From: Candidatus Sungiibacteriota bacterium | GTDB taxonomy: Bacteria > Patescibacteriota > Minisyncoccia > Sungbacterales > HO2-52-23 | Length of the DNA: 64,000 bases | Direction: 5' to 3' | Assembly (NCBI GenBank): GCA_016432465.1 | Contig: CP066690.1 | Coordinates: forward strand, 590,823-654,822 | Shown: positions 27,817 through 60,396 of the stretch, piece after piece | How the letters are laid out: every line of letters begins with the position of its first letter | Position numbering within the stretch: the first letter of the stretch is position 1 | Notes under the pieces: model-generated | The model's database searches: none | The model's input: the letters and a program-made list of their open reading frames with translations, nothing else | Told to the model about the DNA's origin: nothing | Program-made: the position numbers and the translations under genes

Positions 27817-27867
27817 GAACCCGAGAATGCGAAGCGCCAACCTTCAAAATTATATAAAAGGCGCGGA

Positions 27868-27937
27868 GTCCCGCACCGAACGAAGTTCTGGTGCGGGAGC
27901 AGAGGCCAATAAGGCGTTTGCTCACTTCGCGTGGTAG
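27868..27937 (+). pseudogene. hairpin (GTCCCGCACC...GGTGCGGGA) plus a second, synonymous-diverged copy of the rpsG 3' end ([12 protein letters not shown]-stop)
   Basis: gcagaggccaataaggcgtttgctcacttcgcgtggtag re-encodes the last 12 codons of rpsG with 9 synonymous changes. Confidence 0.6.
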
Positions 27938-27960
27938 ATTGCTCGCTAAAGCGGTTCCCT

Positions 27961-28091
27961 CGCCCCGCTCTTTTGTAAACACGCTCGTTTCGCTCCTGCG
28001 GCGAAACTCGCTAATAGTCGGCCGAAGTTTTCTCTGCCTATGGCAGAGAACCAAGCAAACTCCGTCCTCCATTGTTTACAAAAGGGCGGGG
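27961..28091. mobile_element. miniature inverted-repeat element, copy 1
   Basis: TIR CGCCCCGCTCTTTTGTAAAC / GTTTACAAAAGGGCGGGGCTCG; internal GAAGTTTTC and CCGTCCTCCATTGTTT shared with copy at 34170. Confidence 0.6.
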
Positions 28092-28186
28092 CTCGACCGC
28101 TTTACGCTCGCTTATAGAATTTTATTAACGGCCTCGGCCGCATTCTTACTCGCAGTGGGCATTTTTATTTTGTAAAGTATAATTTT

Positions 28187-30316
28187 ATGCCCCGTGACTA
28201 TCCAATAGAAAGAACAAGAGATATAGGTATTATAGCTCATATAGATGCTGGGAAAACGACAGTCACCGAGCGCGTTTTGTTTTACACTGGCGTATCGCAT
28301 AAAATCGGCGAAGTGCATGAGGGAACAACTGTGATGGACTGGATGGAACAGGAGCGGGAACGGGGAATTACTATTACGGCCGCAGCCACCACTTGTTTTT
28401 GGACGCCGACCTATCTCACAACCAACAACCAACAACCAACAACCAACGACGAAAAAAATGAATACCGTATAAACATAATTGATACCCCGGGGCACATTGA
28501 TTTTACGGTGGAGGTTCAGCGCTCATTGCGAGTTTTGGACGGCGCCGTAGTGGTTTTTGACGGCGTGGCCGGAGTGGAGCCGCAATCAGAAACCGTCTGG
28601 CGGCAAGCCGATAAATTTCACGTGCCGCGCATTTGTTTTATCAACAAACTTGACCGCATGGGCGCATCTTTTGAAAAATCTCTTGCTTCAATTTATGAAC
28701 GGCTTACACCCAATGCCGTTGCCGTAACAATTCCGATTGGACACGAGCAAGAGCATGAGGGAGTGATTGATTTGATGCGTATGAGAGCAGTGCGTTTTTT
28801 GGGAGAGCACGGCGAGCAAATAGAGCTTTCCGATATTCCGGAAAATTTAAAATCTTCAGCCGAGGAATGGCGCCACAAAATGGTTGAGAAAATTTCCGAG
28901 TCGGACGAGGCGCTTACGGAAAAATATCTTGAGGGTAAGGAAATTTCCATAGAGGAATTGCGTCGGGCTCTACGTAAAGCAACTCTTGCATATAAACTCG
29001 TTCCGGTTTTCTGCGGCTCGGCCCTAAAAAATAAAGGAGTACAGCTTGTTCTGGACGGTGTTATTGATTATCTGCCTTCACCCCTTGATCTTCCTCCGGT
29101 AAAAGGCATCAATCCCAAAAGCGGCGCGGAAGAGTCACGTGAGGCCAAAGACGATGCCCCTTTTGCCGCGCTTGCTTTTAAACTTCAGTCCGATCCGTAT
29201 GTGGGACAGCTTACTTATTTTCGTGTTTATTCGGGAACGTTGAATGCCGGCTCTTATGTTTTAAATTCTGTGAAAGGAGAGCAAGAACGTGTGGGCAGAA
29301 TTTTGCGGATGCATGCCAACTCCCGCGAAGAGCTAAAAGAAATTAACGCCGGAAATATCGGCGCCATTGTTGGTTTGAAAAATACCCATACCGGAGATAC
29401 CCTCTGCGACCCCGAGCACCCTATTGTGCTGGAAAAAATTATTTTTCCGGAGCCGGTGGTGTCCCTTAAAATTGAACCTAAAACCAAAGCCGATCAGGAA
29501 AAAATGGGGATTGCTCTGCATCGTCTTGGTGAGGAAGACCCCACCTTCCGGATTAAGGGTGATCTGGAAACAGGAGAGACCATTATCTCCGGAATGGGCG
29601 AGCTGCATTTGGAAATTATCGTGGACAGAATGAAGCGTGAGTTTTCGGTTGCGGCCAATGTGGGCCGGCCGCAGGTTGCCTACAAGGAAACAATTAAAAA
29701 ACTGGCCACTGCCGAAGGGAAATATATTCGTCAGTCAGGAGGCCGCGGACAGTACGGACATGTATGGCTTCGGGTGGAGCCGCGGGAGCGCGGCAAGGGC
29801 TTTGAGTTTGTTGATGAAATTAAGGGTGGTATAATTCCCAAAGAGTTTATACCGGCAGTTGAGAAAGGAATTAAGGAAGCAATGGAAAAGGGAGTGCTGG
29901 CAGGATATCCGATGGTGGATATGGAGGTTGCTCTTTATGACGGTTCGTACCACGAAGTTGACTCTTCGGAAGCTGCTTTTAAAATCGCGGGGTCAATTGC
30001 TCTGCAGGAGGCATCTCGCAGAGCAGGGCTTGTGATGCTTGAGCCTATTATGAGAATAGAGGCCGTTCTGCCCGAACAATTTTTGGGAGAGGTGACGGGA
30101 GACTTAAATTCTAAGCGCGGCCGGATTGAGGAAATGTCAGAGCGGGGGCTTGGAATTAAAGTAATTGATGCCAAAGTTCCTTTATCCGAGATGTTTGGAT
30201 ATGTTACGACCCTGCGGTCGTTGACACAGGGAAGGGCCTCCTTCACAATGGAGTTTGATCATTATGAAGAAGTGCCGAACAATATAGCCCAATTGATTAT
30301 TGAAGGAAAAAAGTAA
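28187..30316 (+). CDS. fusA: elongation factor G (with a short [11 protein letters not shown] low-complexity insertion in the G domain)
   Basis: [17 protein letters not shown] etc. Confidence 0.95.
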
Positions 30317-30461
30317 TTTCACAATGTCCCGACGATCGCTTTGCGATGTCGGGATCCCGACTTCCTTATTGATGAATATAAAACGGAGCGTCGGGAGAAT
30401 CTGACCACTATGAGGAGGTGCCGCAGAATATAGCGCAGTTAATTATTGAAGGAAAAAAATA
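30317..30461 (+). pseudogene. hairpin insert followed by a diverged second copy of the fusA 3' end (…[19 protein letters not shown]-stop)
   Basis: TTCACAATG occurs at 30242 and 30318; second copy = first copy + 67-bp insert containing GTCCCGACGATCGCtttGCGATGTCGGGA hairpin. Confidence 0.6.
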
Positions 30462-30479
30462 GGCGCCGTAGGGCGCCAG

Positions 30480-30731
30480 TTAGGACTTTTTTCTCCGACT
30501 TAAGGGGGAAGACATGTGGAGTGTGAACTTTACAACAATACGGGGTCTACCCCTAAGTGTTTCCCCCCGTTGTTTAAAGCGTATAGAAGCCGAAATATAC
30601 GGGTCCGCTTTTCTGATACGCTCGTTTAGCATGTCTAGTAGCACGTCTGTCGTAAGGTGGGGGGAGATTGAGTCGTTGATCAGTTCACGGATTTGTTTCA
30701 AGCTCAGAGTAGCATATGCGTTAATTTTCAT
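30480..30731 (-). CDS. hypothetical small protein
   Basis: GAGGGGTGA SD 4 nt upstream of ATG 30731; no known domain. Confidence 0.5.
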   Translation of the reverse strand: MKINAYATLSLKQIRELINDSISPHLTTDVLLDMLNERIRKADPYISASIRFKQRGETLRGRPRIVVKFTLHMSSPLSRRKKS

Positions 30732-30903
30732 GTAGTCACCCCTCATTTTGCACCACAACCATTAGTAGCAAAACCGGTAAATTTAGTCAAGTACGTTTAT
30801 GAATTTGGATAAAATCAAAAATTTATCAAGGCCTTGATAGCAGGTACTCTATAGAGTAAAATAAGAAGTATAATGCCCACTTTGATAGAAAAAAAATAAA
30901 TTT

Positions 30904-31317
30904 ATGGAGGGACAAGAAAAGATCCCAAAACTAACCAAAGAGGAACTCGCCCGAGATCCTAGGGAGGCTTTTAGAAACTTAGATGCGCATGAGATCTCCC
31001 TTGATTTGTCCAGATTGACCTTAATTGATAAAGGCGTGGAGGAAATCCACCGTTGGTATACAGCTGAGCTGGTAGAGCAAAAACTAGAAGATCCCGAGGG
31101 GTGGTTTAGAAGTCCGAAACACTTCGGTTTATACCACGAGCTTGTAGAAAGGTTAGTTAGGGATACTAAGATTCTTCAAAATGCAACAGGACGGGCTGTC
31201 TTGGAGGAGATGGTTGATAAAATACAAAAGCATGTGGGTGCATATATAGACCCTGTTTCTGCTGTTAACTTCCGGATATTTTTTAAGGAAGCAATAGAGT
31301 TTCTGGGACATAAATAG
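30904..31317 (+). CDS. hypothetical protein
   Basis: 137-aa ORF, no recognisable domain, 10 bp upstream of the next ORF. Confidence 0.45.
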   Translation: MEGQEKIPKLTKEELARDPREAFRNLDAHEISLDLSRLTLIDKGVEEIHRWYTAELVEQKLEDPEGWFRSPKHFGLYHELVERLVRDTKILQNATGRAVLEEMVDKIQKHVGAYIDPVSAVNFRIFFKEAIEFLGHK

Positions 31318-31327
31318 GGTTTTTGAT

Positions 31328-31627
31328 ATGGATTTCTCTAAACTTAAAAACTTAGTAAAGCACAATGGGGATAAATTTGTATTTGTTGAAAATGGGGAGC
31401 CGGAGATGGTGATGATGTCGTTTAAGGAATACGAGAAACTTGCGACCAACGGCAAATATGAAGGGCTGTACCCAACAGATCACGGGTTTCGCCCCCACAA
31501 CGCTGAATTTGCCGACCTTGGGTTTGGGCATTTTAAGGAGACAGAGGTTGTGTTGCCCGGCGGAGGAGAAGGGGCGGGGCTGCCCGTTAGATTAGAAGAT
31601 ATTCGTCTTGAAGATTTGCCTATTTAG
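31328..31627 (+). CDS. Phd/YefM-like antitoxin domain protein with disordered Gly/Pro C-terminal tail
   Basis: N-terminal KFVFVENGEPEMVMMSFKEYEKL resembles YefM ...CVLMSLEEYNSL. Confidence 0.45.
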   Translation: MDFSKLKNLVKHNGDKFVFVENGEPEMVMMSFKEYEKLATNGKYEGLYPTDHGFRPHNAEFADLGFGHFKETEVVLPGGGEGAGLPVRLEDIRLEDLPI

Positions 31628-31740
31628 CATCTTGACTAACCAATTACGTTAAGTTAGGATTAATTTTGTTATCAAAAACATTAAAGTAAGCGAATTTTTC
31701 AAGTTGCATGTCCTCGGGAAATGTAATTTGCGATATATAC

Positions 31741-31761
31741 GCTAAATTTTAGACAAATATG
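31741..31761 (+). promoter_or_regulatory. CTAAATTTTAGACAAAT-ATG motif (also upstream of rpsN at 41107-41127); -10-like TAAATT, no SD
   Basis: near-identical 20-nt blocks directly abutting two start codons. Confidence 0.35.
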
Positions 31762-39053: not shown

Positions 39054-39258
39054 GTCCCGTTAGAGAGGAGGGTCGTCTCTGACGGGGGTTACAATATGTA
39101 TAGGAACCATAGAACCAAGTTAGTTATCAAGATTAACCATAAATCCCGTTAGAGATATGGAACTAAATGCGGTTTGTAGGATATCAATGTATGCGGAACG
39201 CGTCTTACTGCATGTTTCCATACGTAATAAATCTCTAACGGGATAAATCTCTAACGGG
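39054..39258. repeat. cluster of CCCGTTAGAGAT / ATCTCTAACGGG motif copies (2 direct, 2 inverted)
   Basis: same 12-mer forms the TIR of the lepA-5' insert at 58548-58616. Confidence 0.55.
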
Positions 39259-39450
39259 ATGAAAGTTAATGAATTAATAAAAAAATCCCAAGAGGAGCTA
39301 GAGGTACTGCTTGAGGAAAAGAGGCAAAAACAGGAAGAAATGGGGCGGTTGCTTCATCAGAAAAAGATAAAAAATGTAAAGGAGCTCTGGGCTATTAAAA
39401 AAGACATTGCCCGCATATTAACTATTTTAAAATCCTATGAGGCATCTTAA
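39259..39450 (+). CDS. rpmC: ribosomal protein L29
   Basis: operon position, coiled-coil 63 aa. Confidence 0.8.
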   Translation: MKVNELIKKSQEELEVLLEEKRQKQEEMGRLLHQKKIKNVKELWAIKKDIARILTILKSYEAS

Positions 39451-53059: not shown

Positions 53060-53564
53060 GGTTCTTTCCACTGGGTGATCGCGCCGCTTAATATATTGAG
53101 TGGTGAGGAAAGTCCGAGCACCATCCCGCTTTCAGTGGGATAGAGATAGCGGCTAACAGCCGCCATGACCGGGAAACCAAGCACTCAACTTTCAGAGTTG
53201 AGTGCTCGGCCGAGCACTAAAATTTCATTTTAGTGCTTTGGGTGTCACAGAAACCATACCGCCGATCGTCACCATCTTTGGTCTAAAGCCAAAGGCGATG
53301 AAGGAGGCAAGGGTGAAAAGAGTGAGGTAAAAGCTCACAGCGCGCGTTGGCAACAATGCGCGGTGAAAAACTCCTATCCGGTGCAAGAGGATACCGTATT
53401 GTACGGTAACACTCGCTTGACCCCAAGAGTAATCAAGGGGCTAGATAGATGATCACCGCTTGCGCAATCCCCGACGACTAATTACTAATTTCCAATTTTG
53501 GGAGTTCTAAGTTAGAAATTGGCAGTTGCGTTAGCAACAGAACTCGGCTTATAGGTGGAAGGAA
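53060..53564 (+). ncRNA. rnpB: RNase P RNA (bacterial type A) with expansion segments
   Basis: GAGGAAAGTCCGAGCACC, AAGGGTGAAAAGAGTGAGGTAAAAGCTCACAG, CACAGAAACCA, AACAGAACTCGGCTTATAGG; P1 GGTTCTTTCCAC/GTGGAAGGAAC. Confidence 0.8.
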
Positions 53565-53607
53565 CAAAACAAAATAACTCGCACTGCGAGTTATTTTGTT
53601 TTGTTCC
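53559..53607 (+). terminator. perfect 20-bp-arm hairpin terminator after rnpB
   Basis: GGAACAAAACAAAATAACTCGCActgCGAGTTATTTTGTTTTGTTCC. Confidence 0.7.
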
Positions 53608-56787: not shown

Positions 56788-58488
56788 ATGCGTATACTTA
56801 ACGGTGCGGTGCAATCTGTCAATGCCGCGGCGCTATTGCTTGGCGCCGCGGGTTTGTTATCTCGTCTCTTGGGGGTGTTGCGCGACAGGCTTCTCGCGGC
56901 ACGGTTTGGTGCAGGTGGAGAGCTGGACGCTTACTACGCCGCATTTCAGATACCGGATTTTTTGAACGTTGTTTTTTTACTGGGTGCAGCGAGCGCCGCA
57001 GTGTTGCCTATTTTTCAGGAATATCTGGTTAAGGACCGGGAGGAAGCCCGCCGTTTGATTTCTGACCTCGTTACTATTTTTCTTGCAGGTTCCCTTTTAG
57101 TTGCGGCTCTTATTTTTTTTCTCGCCCCGCTAATAGTGCCTTTTATAGCACCGGGTTTTTCTCCAGAAAAGCGTGTTCTCACGGTAACTTTGACTCGTCT
57201 CCTGCTTCTTTCGCCGGTCATTTTTGGAATTTCCAACGTTGTATCTTCCGTCGTGCAGTCTTTTCAGCGTTTCTGGGCATATGCTATTGCACCGGTTCTT
57301 TATAATCTCGGAATTATTTTGGGAATTGTTGTTTTTGTGCCGGTGTTTGGCGTAGCGGGGTTAGCTTTTGGTGTTTTGGCGGGTGCGATTCTGCATCTGG
57401 GCACTCAACTTTTGGCAGTGAGAAGTCTTGGTTTTTCTCCGCGTCTCGGCTGGCAAGGGATAACCGAAGGAGTAAAAAAGGTACTGAAGCTTTCTTTTCC
57501 TCGGGTTCTTTCCGTTTCTCTTTCCCAGCTGACACTGCTTATACTTATTGCCATCGGCTCCACGCTGGTGGAAGGAAGCATTTCCATTTTCCAGCTGGCG
57601 CAGAATTTATACTTCGTGCCTATTGGGATTTTTGGAATAAGCTACTCCGTGGCTATTTTCCCGAGACTGTCCCGTGTTTATATTGGACGAGACGCTCGGG
57701 GGTTTTTCTATGAGTTATTTCTGGGTATTCGTTCCATTATTTTTTGGATGGCGCCGGCCACGGTTCTTTTTATCGTTTTGCGCGCCCATATTGTAAGGGT
57801 GGCGTTGGGCGCCGGAGCATTTTCCTGGGAAGATACAAGGTTAACGGCTGCGGTTCTGGCGGTGTTTTCTCTTTCTCTGTTTGCAGGCGGACTGGTTTCC
57901 CTGTTAATCAAGGGTTTCTATGCCCTAGAAAATACCTGGAGGCCTTTGATTATAAATATTTTTGCTTCGGTTTTCTCCGTCGCCCTAGCCCTTATTTTTT
58001 CTGCGGTTCTTGGAGAGGCGTCCGGTTTTACTCAAGGATTAGCAAATCTGCTTCGCATCCCCGACGTTTTGGACAAAAGGGTGGTTGGTCTTGCGCTTGG
58101 GTTTTCGCTCGGGTCGGCTGTCAATATCTGGCTTCTTTATGGGGCGTTGAAACGTCTTGCCCGGAAGAGTTTTGGTCACGACCAACCCCTTCCGTTAGGA
58201 GAATTTTTGAAAATTATATTGGCGGCATTGGTTTCCGGCCTAGCGGCTTACGGAGTGCGGTTAAGTTTTTCCGAAACTCTTCCTCTTATTACATTTGTCA
58301 GGGTTCTTGTTCAGGGAGCAACAGCCGGCGTGGTTGGTCTTGCGACATATTTTGGAATTTTACTGTTACTGAAAGAAGAAACAGTATTTTCGCTCGTAGG
58401 CACACTTAAGCGTCGTCTCTTTCGTGTTGGTGTTCTCCCGGCCCATTGGGACGGCGAGCTGCACGGTCCGCACCCGCATCAACACTAA
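56788..58488 (+). CDS. murJ: lipid II flippase MurJ
   Basis: N-terminal SRLLGVLRD..FGAG motif, 14 TM. Confidence 0.85.
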   Translation: MRILNGAVQSVNAAALLLGAAGLLSRLLGVLRDRLLAARFGAGGELDAYYAAFQIPDFLNVVFLLGAASAAVLPIFQEYLVKDREEARRLISDLVTIFLAGSLLVAALIFFLAPLIVPFIAPGFSPEKRVLTVTLTRLLLLSPVIFGISNVVSSVVQSFQRFWAYAIAPVLYNLGIILGIVVFVPVFGVAGLAFGVLAGAILHLGTQLLAVRSLGFSPRLGWQGITEGVKKVLKLSFPRVLSVSLSQLTLLILIAIGSTLVEGSISIFQLAQNLYFVPIGIFGISYSVAIFPRLSRVYIGRDARGFFYELFLGIRSIIFWMAPATVLFIVLRAHIVRVALGAGAFSWEDTRLTAAVLAVFSLSLFAGGLVSLLIKGFYALENTWRPLIINIFASVFSVALALIFSAVLGEASGFTQGLANLLRIPDVLDKRVVGLALGFSLGSAVNIWLLYGALKRLARKSFGHDQPLPLGEFLKIILAALVSGLAAYGVRLSFSETLPLITFVRVLVQGATAGVVGLATYFGILLLLKEETVFSLVGTLKRRLFRVGVLPAHWDGELHGPHPHQH

Positions 58489-58505
58489 AATTAAACCGAT
58501 GGCAC

Positions 58506-58547
58506 ATGCAGAACATACGTAATTTTTGTATATTGGCGCACATTGAC
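58506..58547 (+). pseudogene. relic first copy of the lepA 5' end (MQNIRNFCILAHID)
   Basis: encodes a diverged duplicate of lepA residues 1-15, interrupted at TTGAC by the 58548-58616 insert and resuming with CACGGCAAG (HGK). Confidence 0.55.
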
Positions 58548-58616
58548 CCCGTTAGAGATCCGATGCCCAAGGCATCGGCAGTCCCGACGTCGCGTCGGGA
58601 CTTATCTCTAACGGGG
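58548..58616. mobile_element. 69-bp IR element (CCCGTTAGAGAT...ATCTCTAACGGG) flanked by TTGAC direct repeat
   Basis: 12-bp TIR, internal GTCCCGACGTCGCGTCGGGAC hairpin, 5-bp flanking duplication. Confidence 0.6.
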
Positions 58617-58629
58617 TTGACCACGGCAA

Positions 58630-60396
58630 GTGGATAACAATATCAGAAATTTTGTTATTATTGCTCACATAGACCACGGCAAAAGTACCCTTGCTGATCG
58701 TTTTTTGGAACTTACCGGGACAGTGGAGAAACGCAGGATGCGAGAGCAGTTTTTGGATACGATGGCCCTTGAGCGGGAACGGGGCATCACTATAAAAATG
58801 GCGCCGGTGCGGATGGGGTGGCAGGGCTACACATTTAATCTTATTGATACTCCCGGCCACGTGGACTTTACCTACGAAGTTTCCCGCGCCTTGGCCGCAG
58901 TGGAGGGCGCGATTTTGCTGGTGGATGCAACGCAGGGCATTCAGGCCCAAACCCTTGCCAATTTTCAGCTTGCGCAAAAAGAGGGGCTTGTTGTGATTCC
59001 CGCCATAAATAAAATTGATCTTCCTTCAGCAGAGATTGTGAGGACCGAAGCAGAGTTTGTTTCTTTGCTTGGTGCGTTGCCGGAAGACATTTATAAAATT
59101 TCTGCCAAAACCGGTGAGGGCGTTGAGGAACTTTTGAGGGCGGTAATAAAAAAGGTGCCGCCGCCGCAAAATAAAAACGAGGAGATGCTGCGCGCGCTTA
59201 TTTTTGATTCTCACTTTGATCCTTATCAGGGTGTGATTGCTTACGTGCGGATTAGGGAAGGATTCGTCAAAAAAGGAGAACGTATTTTTTTTCTGGCAAC
59301 AAATTCAACGGCAGAAATTTTGGAGACAGGTGTTTTTATGCCCGAGAGGGTCCCTAAAAATATGTTGTCCGCCGGAGAAATTGGTTTCCTAGCCACCGGA
59401 GTCAAAGAGACGGAACGGGTTAGGGTAGGAGATACGATTGCCAAAAATAAATCTGCGGACTCCTTAACCGGATATCGTGAGCCCCAAGCAGTAGTTTTTG
59501 CCTCAATTTTTCCAGAAAACCAGGACGATTATGAACCATTGCGCGAATCGTTAAAAAAATTAAAACTAAACGACGCTGCTTTGACTTTTGAGCCGGAGGA
59601 GTCAGGGGCGCTGGGACGCGGAATGCGTTCTGGGTTTTTGGGCGTACTTCATATGGAAATTGTGGCGGAGCGGTTAAGGCGAGAATACGGACTTAAGGTA
59701 GTATTTACCAATCCATCCGTTGCCTTTCGTGTTAAAACAAAAAGCAGTGAAGACTTTATTTATTCGGCGGCAAAAATGCCGCAGCCTCATGAGATTGAGT
59801 GGGTTAAAGAGCCGTGGGTTAGGGTTGAGGTGATAACACCAAAGGAATACCTTGGAACTTTTGGTTCTTTGGTAAGCGAAAAAAGCGGAAAAATTTCTGA
59901 CACGTCAAATCTGGCCGGAGAACGGCTGCTGTTTAAGTTTGAGGCGCCGCTTCGTGAAATCATTGTTGATTTTTATGATAAATTAAAAAGCGTATCGCAG
60001 GGGTTCGCCTCTATGTCTTACGAGATTATTGATTATCGGCCGGCGGATTTGGTGAGAATGGAGATTTTAGTTGCCGGTCAAAATCAGCCGGCGCTTGCCG
60101 AGATTGTTCCGCGGGGAAAAGTGTATTTTACAGCACGTGAGCGTGTGCAAAAATTAAAAGAGCTTCTGCCGCGCGAACTTTTTGCCGTGGCGATTCAAGC
60201 CGAAGTTGAAGGACGGATTATTGCTCGTGAGACCGTGCCCGCGTTAAAAAAAGACGTTACTGGCTATCTTTACGGAGGCGATCGTACTAGAAAAATGAAA
60301 CTTTGGAAGAAGCAACAGAAAGGGAAAAAGAAATTAAAATCTAGGGGGCGGGTAGAGATTCCACCGGAGATATTTTTGAAGTTATTAAAAAAATGA
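58630..60396 (+). CDS. lepA: elongation factor 4 (GTG start)
   Basis: IIAHIDHGKSTL, DTPGHVDF. Confidence 0.9.
   Translation: MDNNIRNFVIIAHIDHGKSTLADRFLELTGTVEKRRMREQFLDTMALERERGITIKMAPVRMGWQGYTFNLIDTPGHVDFTYEVSRALAAVEGAILLVDATQGIQAQTLANFQLAQKEGLVVIPAINKIDLPSAEIVRTEAEFVSLLGALPEDIYKISAKTGEGVEELLRAVIKKVPPPQNKNEEMLRALIFDSHFDPYQGVIAYVRIREGFVKKGERIFFLATNSTAEILETGVFMPERVPKNMLSAGEIGFLATGVKETERVRVGDTIAKNKSADSLTGYREPQAVVFASIFPENQDDYEPLRESLKKLKLNDAALTFEPEESGALGRGMRSGFLGVLHMEIVAERLRREYGLKVVFTNPSVAFRVKTKSSEDFIYSAAKMPQPHEIEWVKEPWVRVEVITPKEYLGTFGSLVSEKSGKISDTSNLAGERLLFKFEAPLREIIVDFYDKLKSVSQGFASMSYEIIDYRPADLVRMEILVAGQNQPALAEIVPRGKVYFTARERVQKLKELLPRELFAVAIQAEVEGRIIARETVPALKKDVTGYLYGGDRTRKMKLWKKQQKGKKKLKSRGRVEIPPEIFLKLLKK

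Follow-up and report, generated by a model that had tools for sequence, protein, structure and literature searches.

The start of lepA, the gene for elongation factor 4 (EF4), in a genome of Candidatus Sungiibacteriota raises the question of why a dead copy of a gene's 5′ end, split by a small palindromic element, should lie directly in front of an intact one. The locus is part of a 64,000-nucleotide stretch of contig CP066690.1 (positions 590,823–654,822), termed here the window. The sequence-only reading of this DNA described a lepA start region disrupted by a 69-bp element with a 12-bp terminal inverted repeat and a 5-bp TTGAC target duplication, and took it for a footprint of transposition. 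This core interpretation of the lepA site is supported, and the observation itself is confirmed.

The interrupted copy, or relic, reads ATG CAG AAC ATA CGT AAT TTT TGT ATA TTG GCG CAC ATT GA(C) in its first part, and the translation, MQNIRNFCILAHI(D), matches the N-termini of the Sungbacteria LepA homologues P0115, P0002 and P0030. TTGA(C) at 58543–58547 is repeated at 58617–58621 and is then followed by CAC GGC AAG, which completes the motif (Table 1). The uninterrupted comparison site is in the working copy 53 nt downstream, which reads ATA GAC CAC GGC AAA. Removal of the element and one TTGA in silico gives MQNIRNFCILAHIDHGK, with 17 lepA-like codons in which the conserved AHIDHGK codons are exactly restored, and this bears out the claim that a small inverted-repeat element with a target duplication interrupts the lepA start region. 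The element-free frame continues into WITISEILLLLLT and ends at a stop after 13 more codons. Thus excision restores the motif, but it does not restore a full-length gene, and the earlier suggestion that it might return an intact reading frame stands only for the motif. The 74 added bases shift the frame and split the GTP-binding motif between AHID and HGK, at the P-loop codons, and the relic 5′ end is therefore dead.

An in-frame TGA at 58618–58620 means that no start lies further upstream, so that GTG 58630 is the only possible lepA start. The final G of the relic AAG codon is at the same time the first base of this GTG; the overlap of functional lepA with the end of the relic, as noted previously, is this shared G at 58630. 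The LepA of the window is identical to P0001, which is named elongation factor 4 of Candidatus Sungiibacteriota, and the next homologue is 70% identical. For annotation, lepA is to be read from GTG 58630, with 58506–58629 as a pseudogene fragment plus a repeat.

The 69-bp length, the 12-bp repeat and the TTGAC duplication are all present in the DNA, but the statistics of the family to which the element belongs give 70 bp, 13 bp and 4 bp instead. The 13-bp terminal inverted repeats, (C)CCCGTTAGAGAT and ATCTCTAACGGG(G), are at 58547–58559 and 58604–58616, and arms of 14 nt (58546–58559 and 58604–58617) are perfectly complementary. The site is parsed as A-TTGA-[C...G]-TTGA-C, which leaves 74 inserted bases, the same number as in the 69 + 5 parse. 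Between the terminal repeats are two perfect inner hairpins (58560–58578 and 58580–58602), and the single strand is predicted to fold into a three-way junction of −35.8 kcal/mol (z = −10.6), with 0 of 200 shuffled sequences as stable. No Rfam family matches the element at gathering score, and hits at E up to 10 are at chance level. An integron attC site was considered and rejected, as the core sites are in reverse order (GTTAGAG...CTCTAAC on both strands) and lie outside any cassette context. No promoter- or terminator-like signal of note was found between murJ and lepA. The 70 bp are those of a mobile element, non-coding and able to form hairpins, that inserted at TTGA inside ATT GAC.

Inverted pairs of the 12-mer CCCGTTAGAGAT, 36–66 nt apart, were scanned for in one genome per species. 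The sequence-only reading had proposed such a search, and pairs are found both in the window and, in other genomes, at 120 loci or more. The hosts include many classes of Patescibacteria (Saccharibacteria among them), Omnitrophota, Planctomycetota, Nitrospirota and Elusimicrobiota; an Ignavibacteriales genome and a gammaproteobacterial bin are further hosts among the matches listed. No copies were found in 2.9 million viral contigs. The arm sequence, also given as YCCCGTTAGAGAT, is part of a 13-bp terminal repeat, Y-CCCGTTAGAGAT, whose outermost pair is variable: the base pair directly outside the 12-mer arms is complementary, being C-G in 72 and T-A in 42 of 123 copies. Four flanking bases are identical on the left and right in 89 of the 123 copies, where 8.8 are expected and the maximum among 1000 shuffled pairings is 19. 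Flanking duplications are thus far above chance, and the proposed footprint of transposition is upheld. The duplicated core is TNNA, within a broader target preference RTNNAY. Such identical 12–13-bp ends across phyla imply recent DNA exchange among them.

The interiors of family members, whose cores range from 60 to 123 bp, consist either of two G+C-rich hairpins, as at lepA, or of an A+T-rich stretch of about 50 nt. Twenty-eight two-hairpin copies were aligned. The arms are invariant and the pairing of hairpin 1 is kept through two-sided changes; one pair, for example, is CG in 10 sequences, AU in eight and UA in seven. A covariance model built from this alignment finds exactly three members in the window, at 58547–58616 (the lepA element), 39144–39243 and 39055–39087. 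The last two are in the rplP–rpmC region. The exact 12-mer occurs five times in the window, twice at lepA and three times at 39145–39258, with a chance estimate of ~0.008. In the larger rplP–rpmC copy the right arm (ATAAATCTCTAACGGG) is present twice, and the duplicated arm adjoins the rpmC ATG (39259). The other copy is a miniature that starts 1 nt past the rplP stop codon. Widely spaced arm pairs, as expected of an autonomous element, were not found within the fetched 8-kb loci. Y1 transposase homologues are present in three family loci, at coordinates that do not adjoin the arms.

The sequence-only reading also held that the hairpin of the lepA element is nearly the same as that of an insert at fusA. 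The likeness turns out to be just a shared 8-bp stem, GTCCCGAC/GTCGGGA, and the covariance model has no match in the fusA and rpsG inserts, which reduces the link with fusA to this stem.

Family copies are found within genes as well as between them. Core length is divisible by three in 31 of 45 two-hairpin copies, and 23 element-frame combinations, from 21 copies, are open through on both sides; 17 of these read PVRD-(13–17 aa)-ISNG. In-frame copies in YchF (twice), RsmH, a dihydroorotate-dehydrogenase-like protein and a ferredoxin-domain protein add about 22 residues each, usually as PVRD...ISNG. The two YchF genes are from different genomes and have the element at different positions, each without the other's insert, and the solved YchF structure 1jal is without the insert found in L057. 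The A+T-rich, T-A-ended subtype is positioned exactly on the start codons of housekeeping genes (valS, metS, leuS, recG, trmD, rplU, rplI and others). There the terminal A together with a duplicated TGAA or TGGA rebuilds the ATG, and the native 5′ leader is replaced. The same rebuilding of the start codon is seen at rpmC in the window. Gene calling and protein-family alignments of these genomes are affected, through extra PVRD...ISNG segments and shifted starts.

Unlike the in-frame family copies, the lepA copy is out of frame, adding 74 nt, and it is a copy that both shifts the frame and strikes an essential motif. Also, among about 125 listed copies it alone has flanks duplicated at the protein level, an internal repeat in a ferredoxin aside. 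Tandem duplication as a general by-product of insertion by this family is rejected, as no other of these copies has duplicated flanks, with the same exception.

What, then, is the relic? It had been taken for the former start of the present lepA frame. It is instead a second, diverged allele in tandem. Without the insert the relic measures 51 nt and is in direct tandem with the working 5′ end, with an overlap of 1 nt, and the 53-nt tandem unit is bracketed by an exact 11-nt repeat, GACCACGGCAA, at 58619–58629 and again downstream. Over 15 aligned codons, 12 of 45 nucleotides differ (73% identity), with seven synonymous and two non-synonymous codon differences. When lepA is pooled with the similar cases at fusA and rpsG described below, there are 25 synonymous and four non-synonymous codon differences, and random-substitution simulations with an equal number of substitutions gave so few amino-acid changes in 0 of 20,000 runs for the three genes together. 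Both types of N-terminus are present in related LepA proteins. The excess of synonymous changes means that the relics are not neutrally drifted duplicates; the pairs are alleles that diverged under selection, with the relic disabled recently. As judged from the aligned codons, the dead and the working lepA 5′ ends are shown to be different alleles that diverged under protein-coding constraint. A recent simple tandem duplication is rejected, given copies that are 73–80% identical with 25 synonymous and four non-synonymous differences, and the same numbers reject a long-term neutral decay of the relic. Third-position composition, compared by eye, gives no call as to which allele is native, as the segments are too short.

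The lepA arrangement has parallels. The window and about 860 kb of other loci were scanned for gene ends that recur just outside the gene, and three such terminal relics are in the 64 kb of the window, compared with only two in the other loci. At fusA, the final 21 residues recur past the stop codon with 19 of 21 identical, and at rpsG the repeated stretch has 8 nt differences from the working copy, all synonymous. Both recurrences are split by a hairpin insert of about the same length as the lepA element (Table 1). The fusA and rpsG inserts directly follow AATG, without duplication, as read by eye. As members of the lepA element family they are rejected by the covariance model and by BLAST. 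A metagenome scan for the second hairpin, GAGTCCCGCAC...GGTGCG, gave mostly chance matches (G+C-rich contigs and tRNA 3′ ends), with no further gene-end duplicates among the matches listed.

Outside the window, the 3′ end of secA, which encodes the zinc-finger tail, is duplicated with the same layout in a Saccharibacteria contig (CAYIBZ010000025.1; L025, 7700–7900). Its hairpin, GGAGTCCCGCACAGAAC..GTTCTGGTGCG (GGAGTCCCGCACAGAACTTGTTCTGGTGCG), is nearly identical to that of the rpsG insert. In an Omnitrophota contig (JAHJHM010000126.1; L036, 3807–4078) a gene 5′ end is present as two 118-nt tandem copies that are 100% identical. Of the two, only the upstream one is interrupted, by a perfect 20-nt palindrome, CCTGCCTGCCGGCAGGCAGG, with no duplication of the target. 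The case has the appearance of a relic layout that formed very recently. All five relics have a contiguous old terminus with a small hairpin insert within it, in tandem with an intact terminus. The four older ones, i.e. all except L036, are 0–1 nt from the working terminus.

Perhaps the layout records the repair of damage. In the explanation that we favour, an element would land near a gene terminus and damage the gene, leaving the gene body as it was. An intact terminus from another allele of lepA, carried by DNA of another lineage, would then be recombined in beside the damaged one, possibly with the joint at the 11-nt identity GACCACGGCAA. The gene would work again, and the interrupted terminus would stay behind as a relic. 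On balance insertion probably came first and was compensated by a recombined intact terminus; we infer both the order of events and the recombination mechanism. This order would account for the inserts seen in every relic, for the position of the relics at termini, since damage can be survived there and needs only a short patch, and for the out-of-frame lepA copy, in an essential motif, being the sole family copy with a duplicated flank. The repeated layout at fusA, rpsG, the Saccharibacteria secA and the Omnitrophota gene suggests that the outcome recurs. An interrupted relic next to an intact terminus, as at lepA, fusA, rpsG and secA, with alleles whose differences are almost all synonymous, marks recombination between diverged lineages in little space and in a form that can be dated. 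If the relics are mechanistically tied to the insertions, they show how streamlined genomes survive hits in essential genes.

Several points weigh against an explanation of this kind. Insertion into a relic that was already dead would look alike. A donor allele, an empty-site variant or an uninterrupted relic were not found, the six population contigs being identical, and the nearest LepA homologue is just 70% identical. The fusA and rpsG inserts are other types of hairpin, so that the claim of a same process is based on layout alone. No transposase is linked to the element family, where the 8-kb loci and the viral contigs were searched. Lastly, the joints of 0–1 nt in four cases are not predicted by random illegitimate joining. 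This regularity hints at a more specific mechanism, and no model considered here accounts for it.

A wider proposition is as follows. Hairpin insertions near the ends of highly conserved genes might be neutralized regularly by a defined process that sets an intact terminus of another allele next to the damaged one, with the joint 0–1 nt from the start or stop, and the resulting cassettes might then spread between distant lineages through homologous recombination in the conserved gene. We offer this tentatively, as something that may be so but is rather to be doubted. If true, tiny non-coding elements persist in, and move among, minimal genomes by a route not described before, and they leave behind, in uncultured bacteria, a record from which gene flow between lineages can be read.

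The order of events can also be reversed. The duplication may have been first: a diverged lepA allele would have recombined with the gene, one of the joints being illegitimate, and left a 51-nt dead remnant, and the element would have landed in it later, dead DNA being among the few places in a compact genome that tolerate insertion. Here each step is neutral and no rescue is needed. The family has a loose TNNA target and is found mostly outside long open reading stretches, the intergenic DNA of the window is dense with hairpins, and with at least three relics in 64 kb, relic DNA is not rare. Yet all five relics have an insert, whereas clean relics are expected if the two events are independent, and none was seen. 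The relics are also undecayed, which leaves only a short time for a later insertion. In the Omnitrophota case both the duplication and the insert must be young, since the copies are 100% identical, and two independent rare events within ~250 bp are unlikely. For these reasons we consider that the duplication is unlikely to have preceded the insertion.

A third possibility concerns the unit as a whole. Intact terminus, joint and interrupted relic might together form a self-spreading cassette that arose once per gene and moves by homologous recombination, with homology supplied by the conserved genes. Crossovers would take place between the donor working copy and the recipient gene, and between the donor relic and the recipient terminus, which then becomes the new relic. 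Of the explanations considered, this is the best account of the constant joint layout and of the near-same hairpins in two phyla, which accompany rpsG in a Sungbacterium and secA in a Saccharibacterium. It also explains that in every case the working end and the relic are two distinct alleles without decay, and that the hosts are highly conserved (rpsG, fusA, the P-loop region of lepA, secA). However, the lepA, fusA and rpsG cassettes were not found at the same sites in any second lineage, and in L247, the single related lepA locus that was looked at, the site has an IS200-like gene and no relic. The origin for each gene is still unexplained, and no nuclease or other drive was identified. A self-spreading cassette is on this evidence distinctly improbable.

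How lepA is translated today is a separate question. A Shine–Dalgarno-like motif precedes nine of 53 genes, and there is none before lepA, whose start is 14 nt past a very stable hairpin. The relic frame keeps the native A+T-rich initiation region. It is part of an open reading frame (ORF) at 58446–58637 and overlaps the lepA start in GTGGATAA. Ribosomes would start at the relic ATG (58506), translate 43 codons across the hairpin, terminate at TAA and begin again at GTG 58630. Termination–reinitiation coupling with the relic frame is thus a plausible mode of lepA translation, as the arrangement of the two frames would allow it. A protein search with the 43-residue relic frame gave no match. 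Translational bypassing is known from T4 gene 60 and from the ‘byp’ elements of Magnusiomyces mitochondria, and the lepA locus is similar in that a hairpin insert is within coding sequence with matching GAC codons on either side. A bypass from GAC to GAC over 74 nt is nevertheless rejected, as the product would be a 30-residue peptide ending in a stop and not LepA.

The same features might be viewed as a leader or attenuator, with an upstream frame and a strong hairpin kept for the regulation of lepA translation or transcription, and with the likeness to lepA being historical. The relic frame is indeed open through the element and its end overlaps the GTG start, and the hairpin is very stable; lepA lacks a Shine–Dalgarno motif, as do most genes here. 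But throughout the family each arm has two open frames out of three, so an open frame is not special. The hairpin is not followed by a terminator-like T run and matches no RNA family, and the target duplication and the 3′ relics of fusA and rpsG are left unexplained. Regulation appears very improbable as the origin of the arrangement, and would at most be a secondary use of it. Finally, an assembly artefact, in which the assembler would have placed two strain versions of the lepA start one after the other, is hardly credible: the source is metagenome-assembled and the two copies are allelic variants, but the same 261-nt region around the feature is identical in six independent Logan assemblies (related samples, different runs), which makes an assembly error very unlikely, the contig on record is 923 kb, the layout is repeated at three genes of the window and in unrelated genomes, and 73% identity is too diverged for a strain collapse.

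With regard to known repeat elements, the family is best described as MITE-like (miniature inverted-repeat transposable element), resembling the Rickettsia palindromic elements (RPEs). Like Correia/NEMIS, ERIC, BOX, RUP and Nezha, its members are small and non-coding, with terminal inverted repeats, a target-site duplication and many copies; bacterial MITEs likewise can fold into stable hairpins and carry expression signals. Family members are under ~500 bp, are non-coding, and have terminal inverted repeats, a duplication of fixed length, and multiple copies together with empty sites. The YchF genes provide mutual empty sites, and the working lepA 5′ end is uninterrupted at the position where the relic is split. 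In contrast to MITEs, the interior of the family is hypervariable, while the 12–13-bp arms do not differ between phyla and paired changes preserve the hairpins. Also in contrast, no parent insertion sequence or transposase was found for the family, and its A+T-rich subtype is positioned on start codons with the ATG rebuilt.

The RPEs are described in a review of MITEs, which has nothing like the lepA element family (PMC10969869). As in Rickettsia, short palindromic non-coding repeats are found in frame within protein genes and are tolerated as extra peptide segments (PMC10969869). The description of the RPEs also sets them apart: at ~100–150 bp they are longer than the lepA family, at 60–90 bp, and apparently differ in sequence. 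The lepA family has clear 13-bp terminal inverted repeats and a 4-bp TNNA duplication. RPEs are confined to one genus, whereas the family is in Patescibacteria, Omnitrophota, Planctomycetota and others, and the lepA copy itself is out of frame and disabling instead of tolerated. The Rickettsia picture of selfish DNA within genes is thereby extended to many uncultured phyla. A search of the literature on the 12-mer, on the peptides that the inserts encode, and on palindromic elements or MITEs of candidate phyla gave no account of the family, an absence that is not proof of novelty. The cross-phylum palindromic family has apparently not been described before.

The family shares with REP/BIME sequences and their RAYT proteins, and with IS200/IS605 elements, the feature of hairpin-forming repeats in compact genomes. 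An identity with REP/BIME is rejected: the arms begin YCCCG, there is no GTAG/CGTC tag, a duplication is present and many copies are intragenic. An identity with IS200/IS605-type elements is likewise rejected: elements mobilized by Y1 enzymes have neither true terminal inverted repeats nor a 4-bp duplication, and the lepA element has both, the duplicated TNNA being variable. The fusA and rpsG inserts, on the other hand, may be IS200/IS605-type palindrome-associated elements, given that both follow AATG without duplication. In the murJ–lepA spacer of the relative mentioned above (L247, 2288–3079) there is a gene for a 234-aa IS200-like Y1 transposase (Pfam Y1_Tnp), with weak RAYT similarity below cutoff. 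It is flanked on both sides by perfect 35–37-nt hairpins, ATGAAGGGAAGTC.GACTTCCCTTCAT, and homologues of it are in L038, L083 and L092.

Gene ends are also replaced by integrating elements, as with e14 in icd and with islands in tRNA genes; in fungal mitochondria, free-standing endonuclease genes reportedly carry a duplicate C-terminus. In common with these, the lepA locus has a surrogate terminus with mainly synonymous differences beside a displaced remnant of the resident one, and the host gene is functional. It differs in that no gene for an integrase or endonuclease separates the copies, in that the termini are 0–1 nt apart and in that the remnant is split by a hairpin insert. The lepA locus thus has no element body between the termini, as gene-end replacement by a site-specific integrating element would entail, although an 11-nt identical repeat does bracket the lepA unit.

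Table 1. Positions of the lepA locus, of the fusA and rpsG relics and of further copies of the palindromic family (window coordinates unless a locus is named).
Feature	Position	Strand	Remarks
Palindromic insertion element, 70 bp	58547..58616	- (family consensus orientation)	covariance model 68.9 bits, E = 1e-15
Relic lepA 5′ end, part 1	58506..58546	+	codons 1–13 and two bases of Asp14
Left target duplication copy, TTGA	58543-58546	+	last 4 nt of relic part 1
Right target duplication copy, TTGA	58617..58620	+	sequence; family flank statistics
Relic lepA 5′ end, part 2	58621..58630	+	C CAC GGC AAG; completes Asp14-His-Gly-Lys
Open frame of interrupted relic	58506..58637	+	43 codons through element, MQNIRNFCILAHIDPVRD...SLTGLTTASG, TAA 58635-58637
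Working lepA (EF4)	58630..60396	+	588 aa, GTG start; first 53 nt are the intact 5′-end copy
11-nt repeat GACCACGGCAA	58672..58682	+	exact repeat of 58619-58629; candidate recombination joint
fusA 3′ relic	30318..30462	+	starts 1 nt after working stop TAA 30314-30316
fusA relic part 1, TTCACAATG	30318-30326	+	repeats nine bases preceding GAG TTT GAT in working copy
fusA insert, 70-nt double hairpin	30327-30396	+	
fusA relic part 2, GAATCTGAC...AAATAG	30397-30462	+	
rpsG 3′ relic	27818..27937	+	starts 1 nt after working stop TAA 27814-27816
rpsG relic part 1, AAC CCG AGA ATG	27818-27829	+	NPRM vs THRM in working copy; assigned by eye
rpsG insert, 69 nt, hairpin GAGTCCCGCACC...GGTGCGGGA	27830-27898	+	
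rpsG relic part 2, GCAGAGGCC...TGGTAG	27899-27937	+	
Second full family copy	39144..39259		A+T-rich interior, T-A terminal pair, ATAAAT flanks; 36.8 bits
Miniature degenerate copy	39055..39088		arms with 1–2 mismatches, 7-nt interior; 25.1 bits, E = 3e-4
In-frame copies, YchF	L057 6053-6115, L089 5444-5509		different sites
In-frame copies, RsmH, dihydroorotate-dehydrogenase-like and ferredoxin-domain proteins	L031 3493-3552, L013 5434-5496, L068 4762-4824		
Start-codon copies, A+T-rich subtype	L016, L040, L049, L052, L067, L078, L081		
Start-codon copies, A+T-rich subtype, continued	L084, L109, L110, L112, L114, L115, L119 and others		

Other features of these genes and their neighbourhood may be mentioned. 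The 370-nt spacer between rpsG and fusA has a long near-perfect inverted repeat with arms of ~30 nt (AAAGCGGTTCCCTCGCCCCGCTCTTTTGTAAACA...) at 27940–28125, and the fold of the spacer has z = −6; the inverted repeat is probably another palindromic element. The gap of 1.3 kb between fusA and tuf (30463–31758) has a terminator-like hairpin, two small ORFs on the plus strand and one on the minus strand. One of these ORFs has a weak similarity to the Phd/YefM antitoxin, below the Pfam cutoff. The 1.3 kb may be an inserted island that adjoins the fusA relic. Within fusA itself, in the region of the G domain (28415–28450), CAACCAA-type repeats (caaccaacaaccaacaaccaacaaccaac) encode a low-complexity insertion.

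In L177, at ~880–950 in strand-specific coordinates, a hammerhead-ribozyme-like core, CTGATGAG-TCC-AAAA-GGA-CGAAA, immediately precedes a GAGTCCCGCACC...GGTGCGGGG-type hairpin. The core is not present beside the rpsG hairpin of the window. Five Sungbacteria LepA homologues (P0011, P0025, P0046, P0083 and P0115) have an in-frame insertion of ~150 residues with a PD-(D/E)XK nuclease domain (PF13366), situated between the PVRM strand and LNLIDTPGH and with repeat-like peptides on either side. The RNase P RNA of the window (53063–53567) is 505 nt long compared with a model of 367 positions, and it has three expansions, i.e. 74 nt that replace 12 of the model, a 25-nt hairpin and ~63 nt near the 3′ end.

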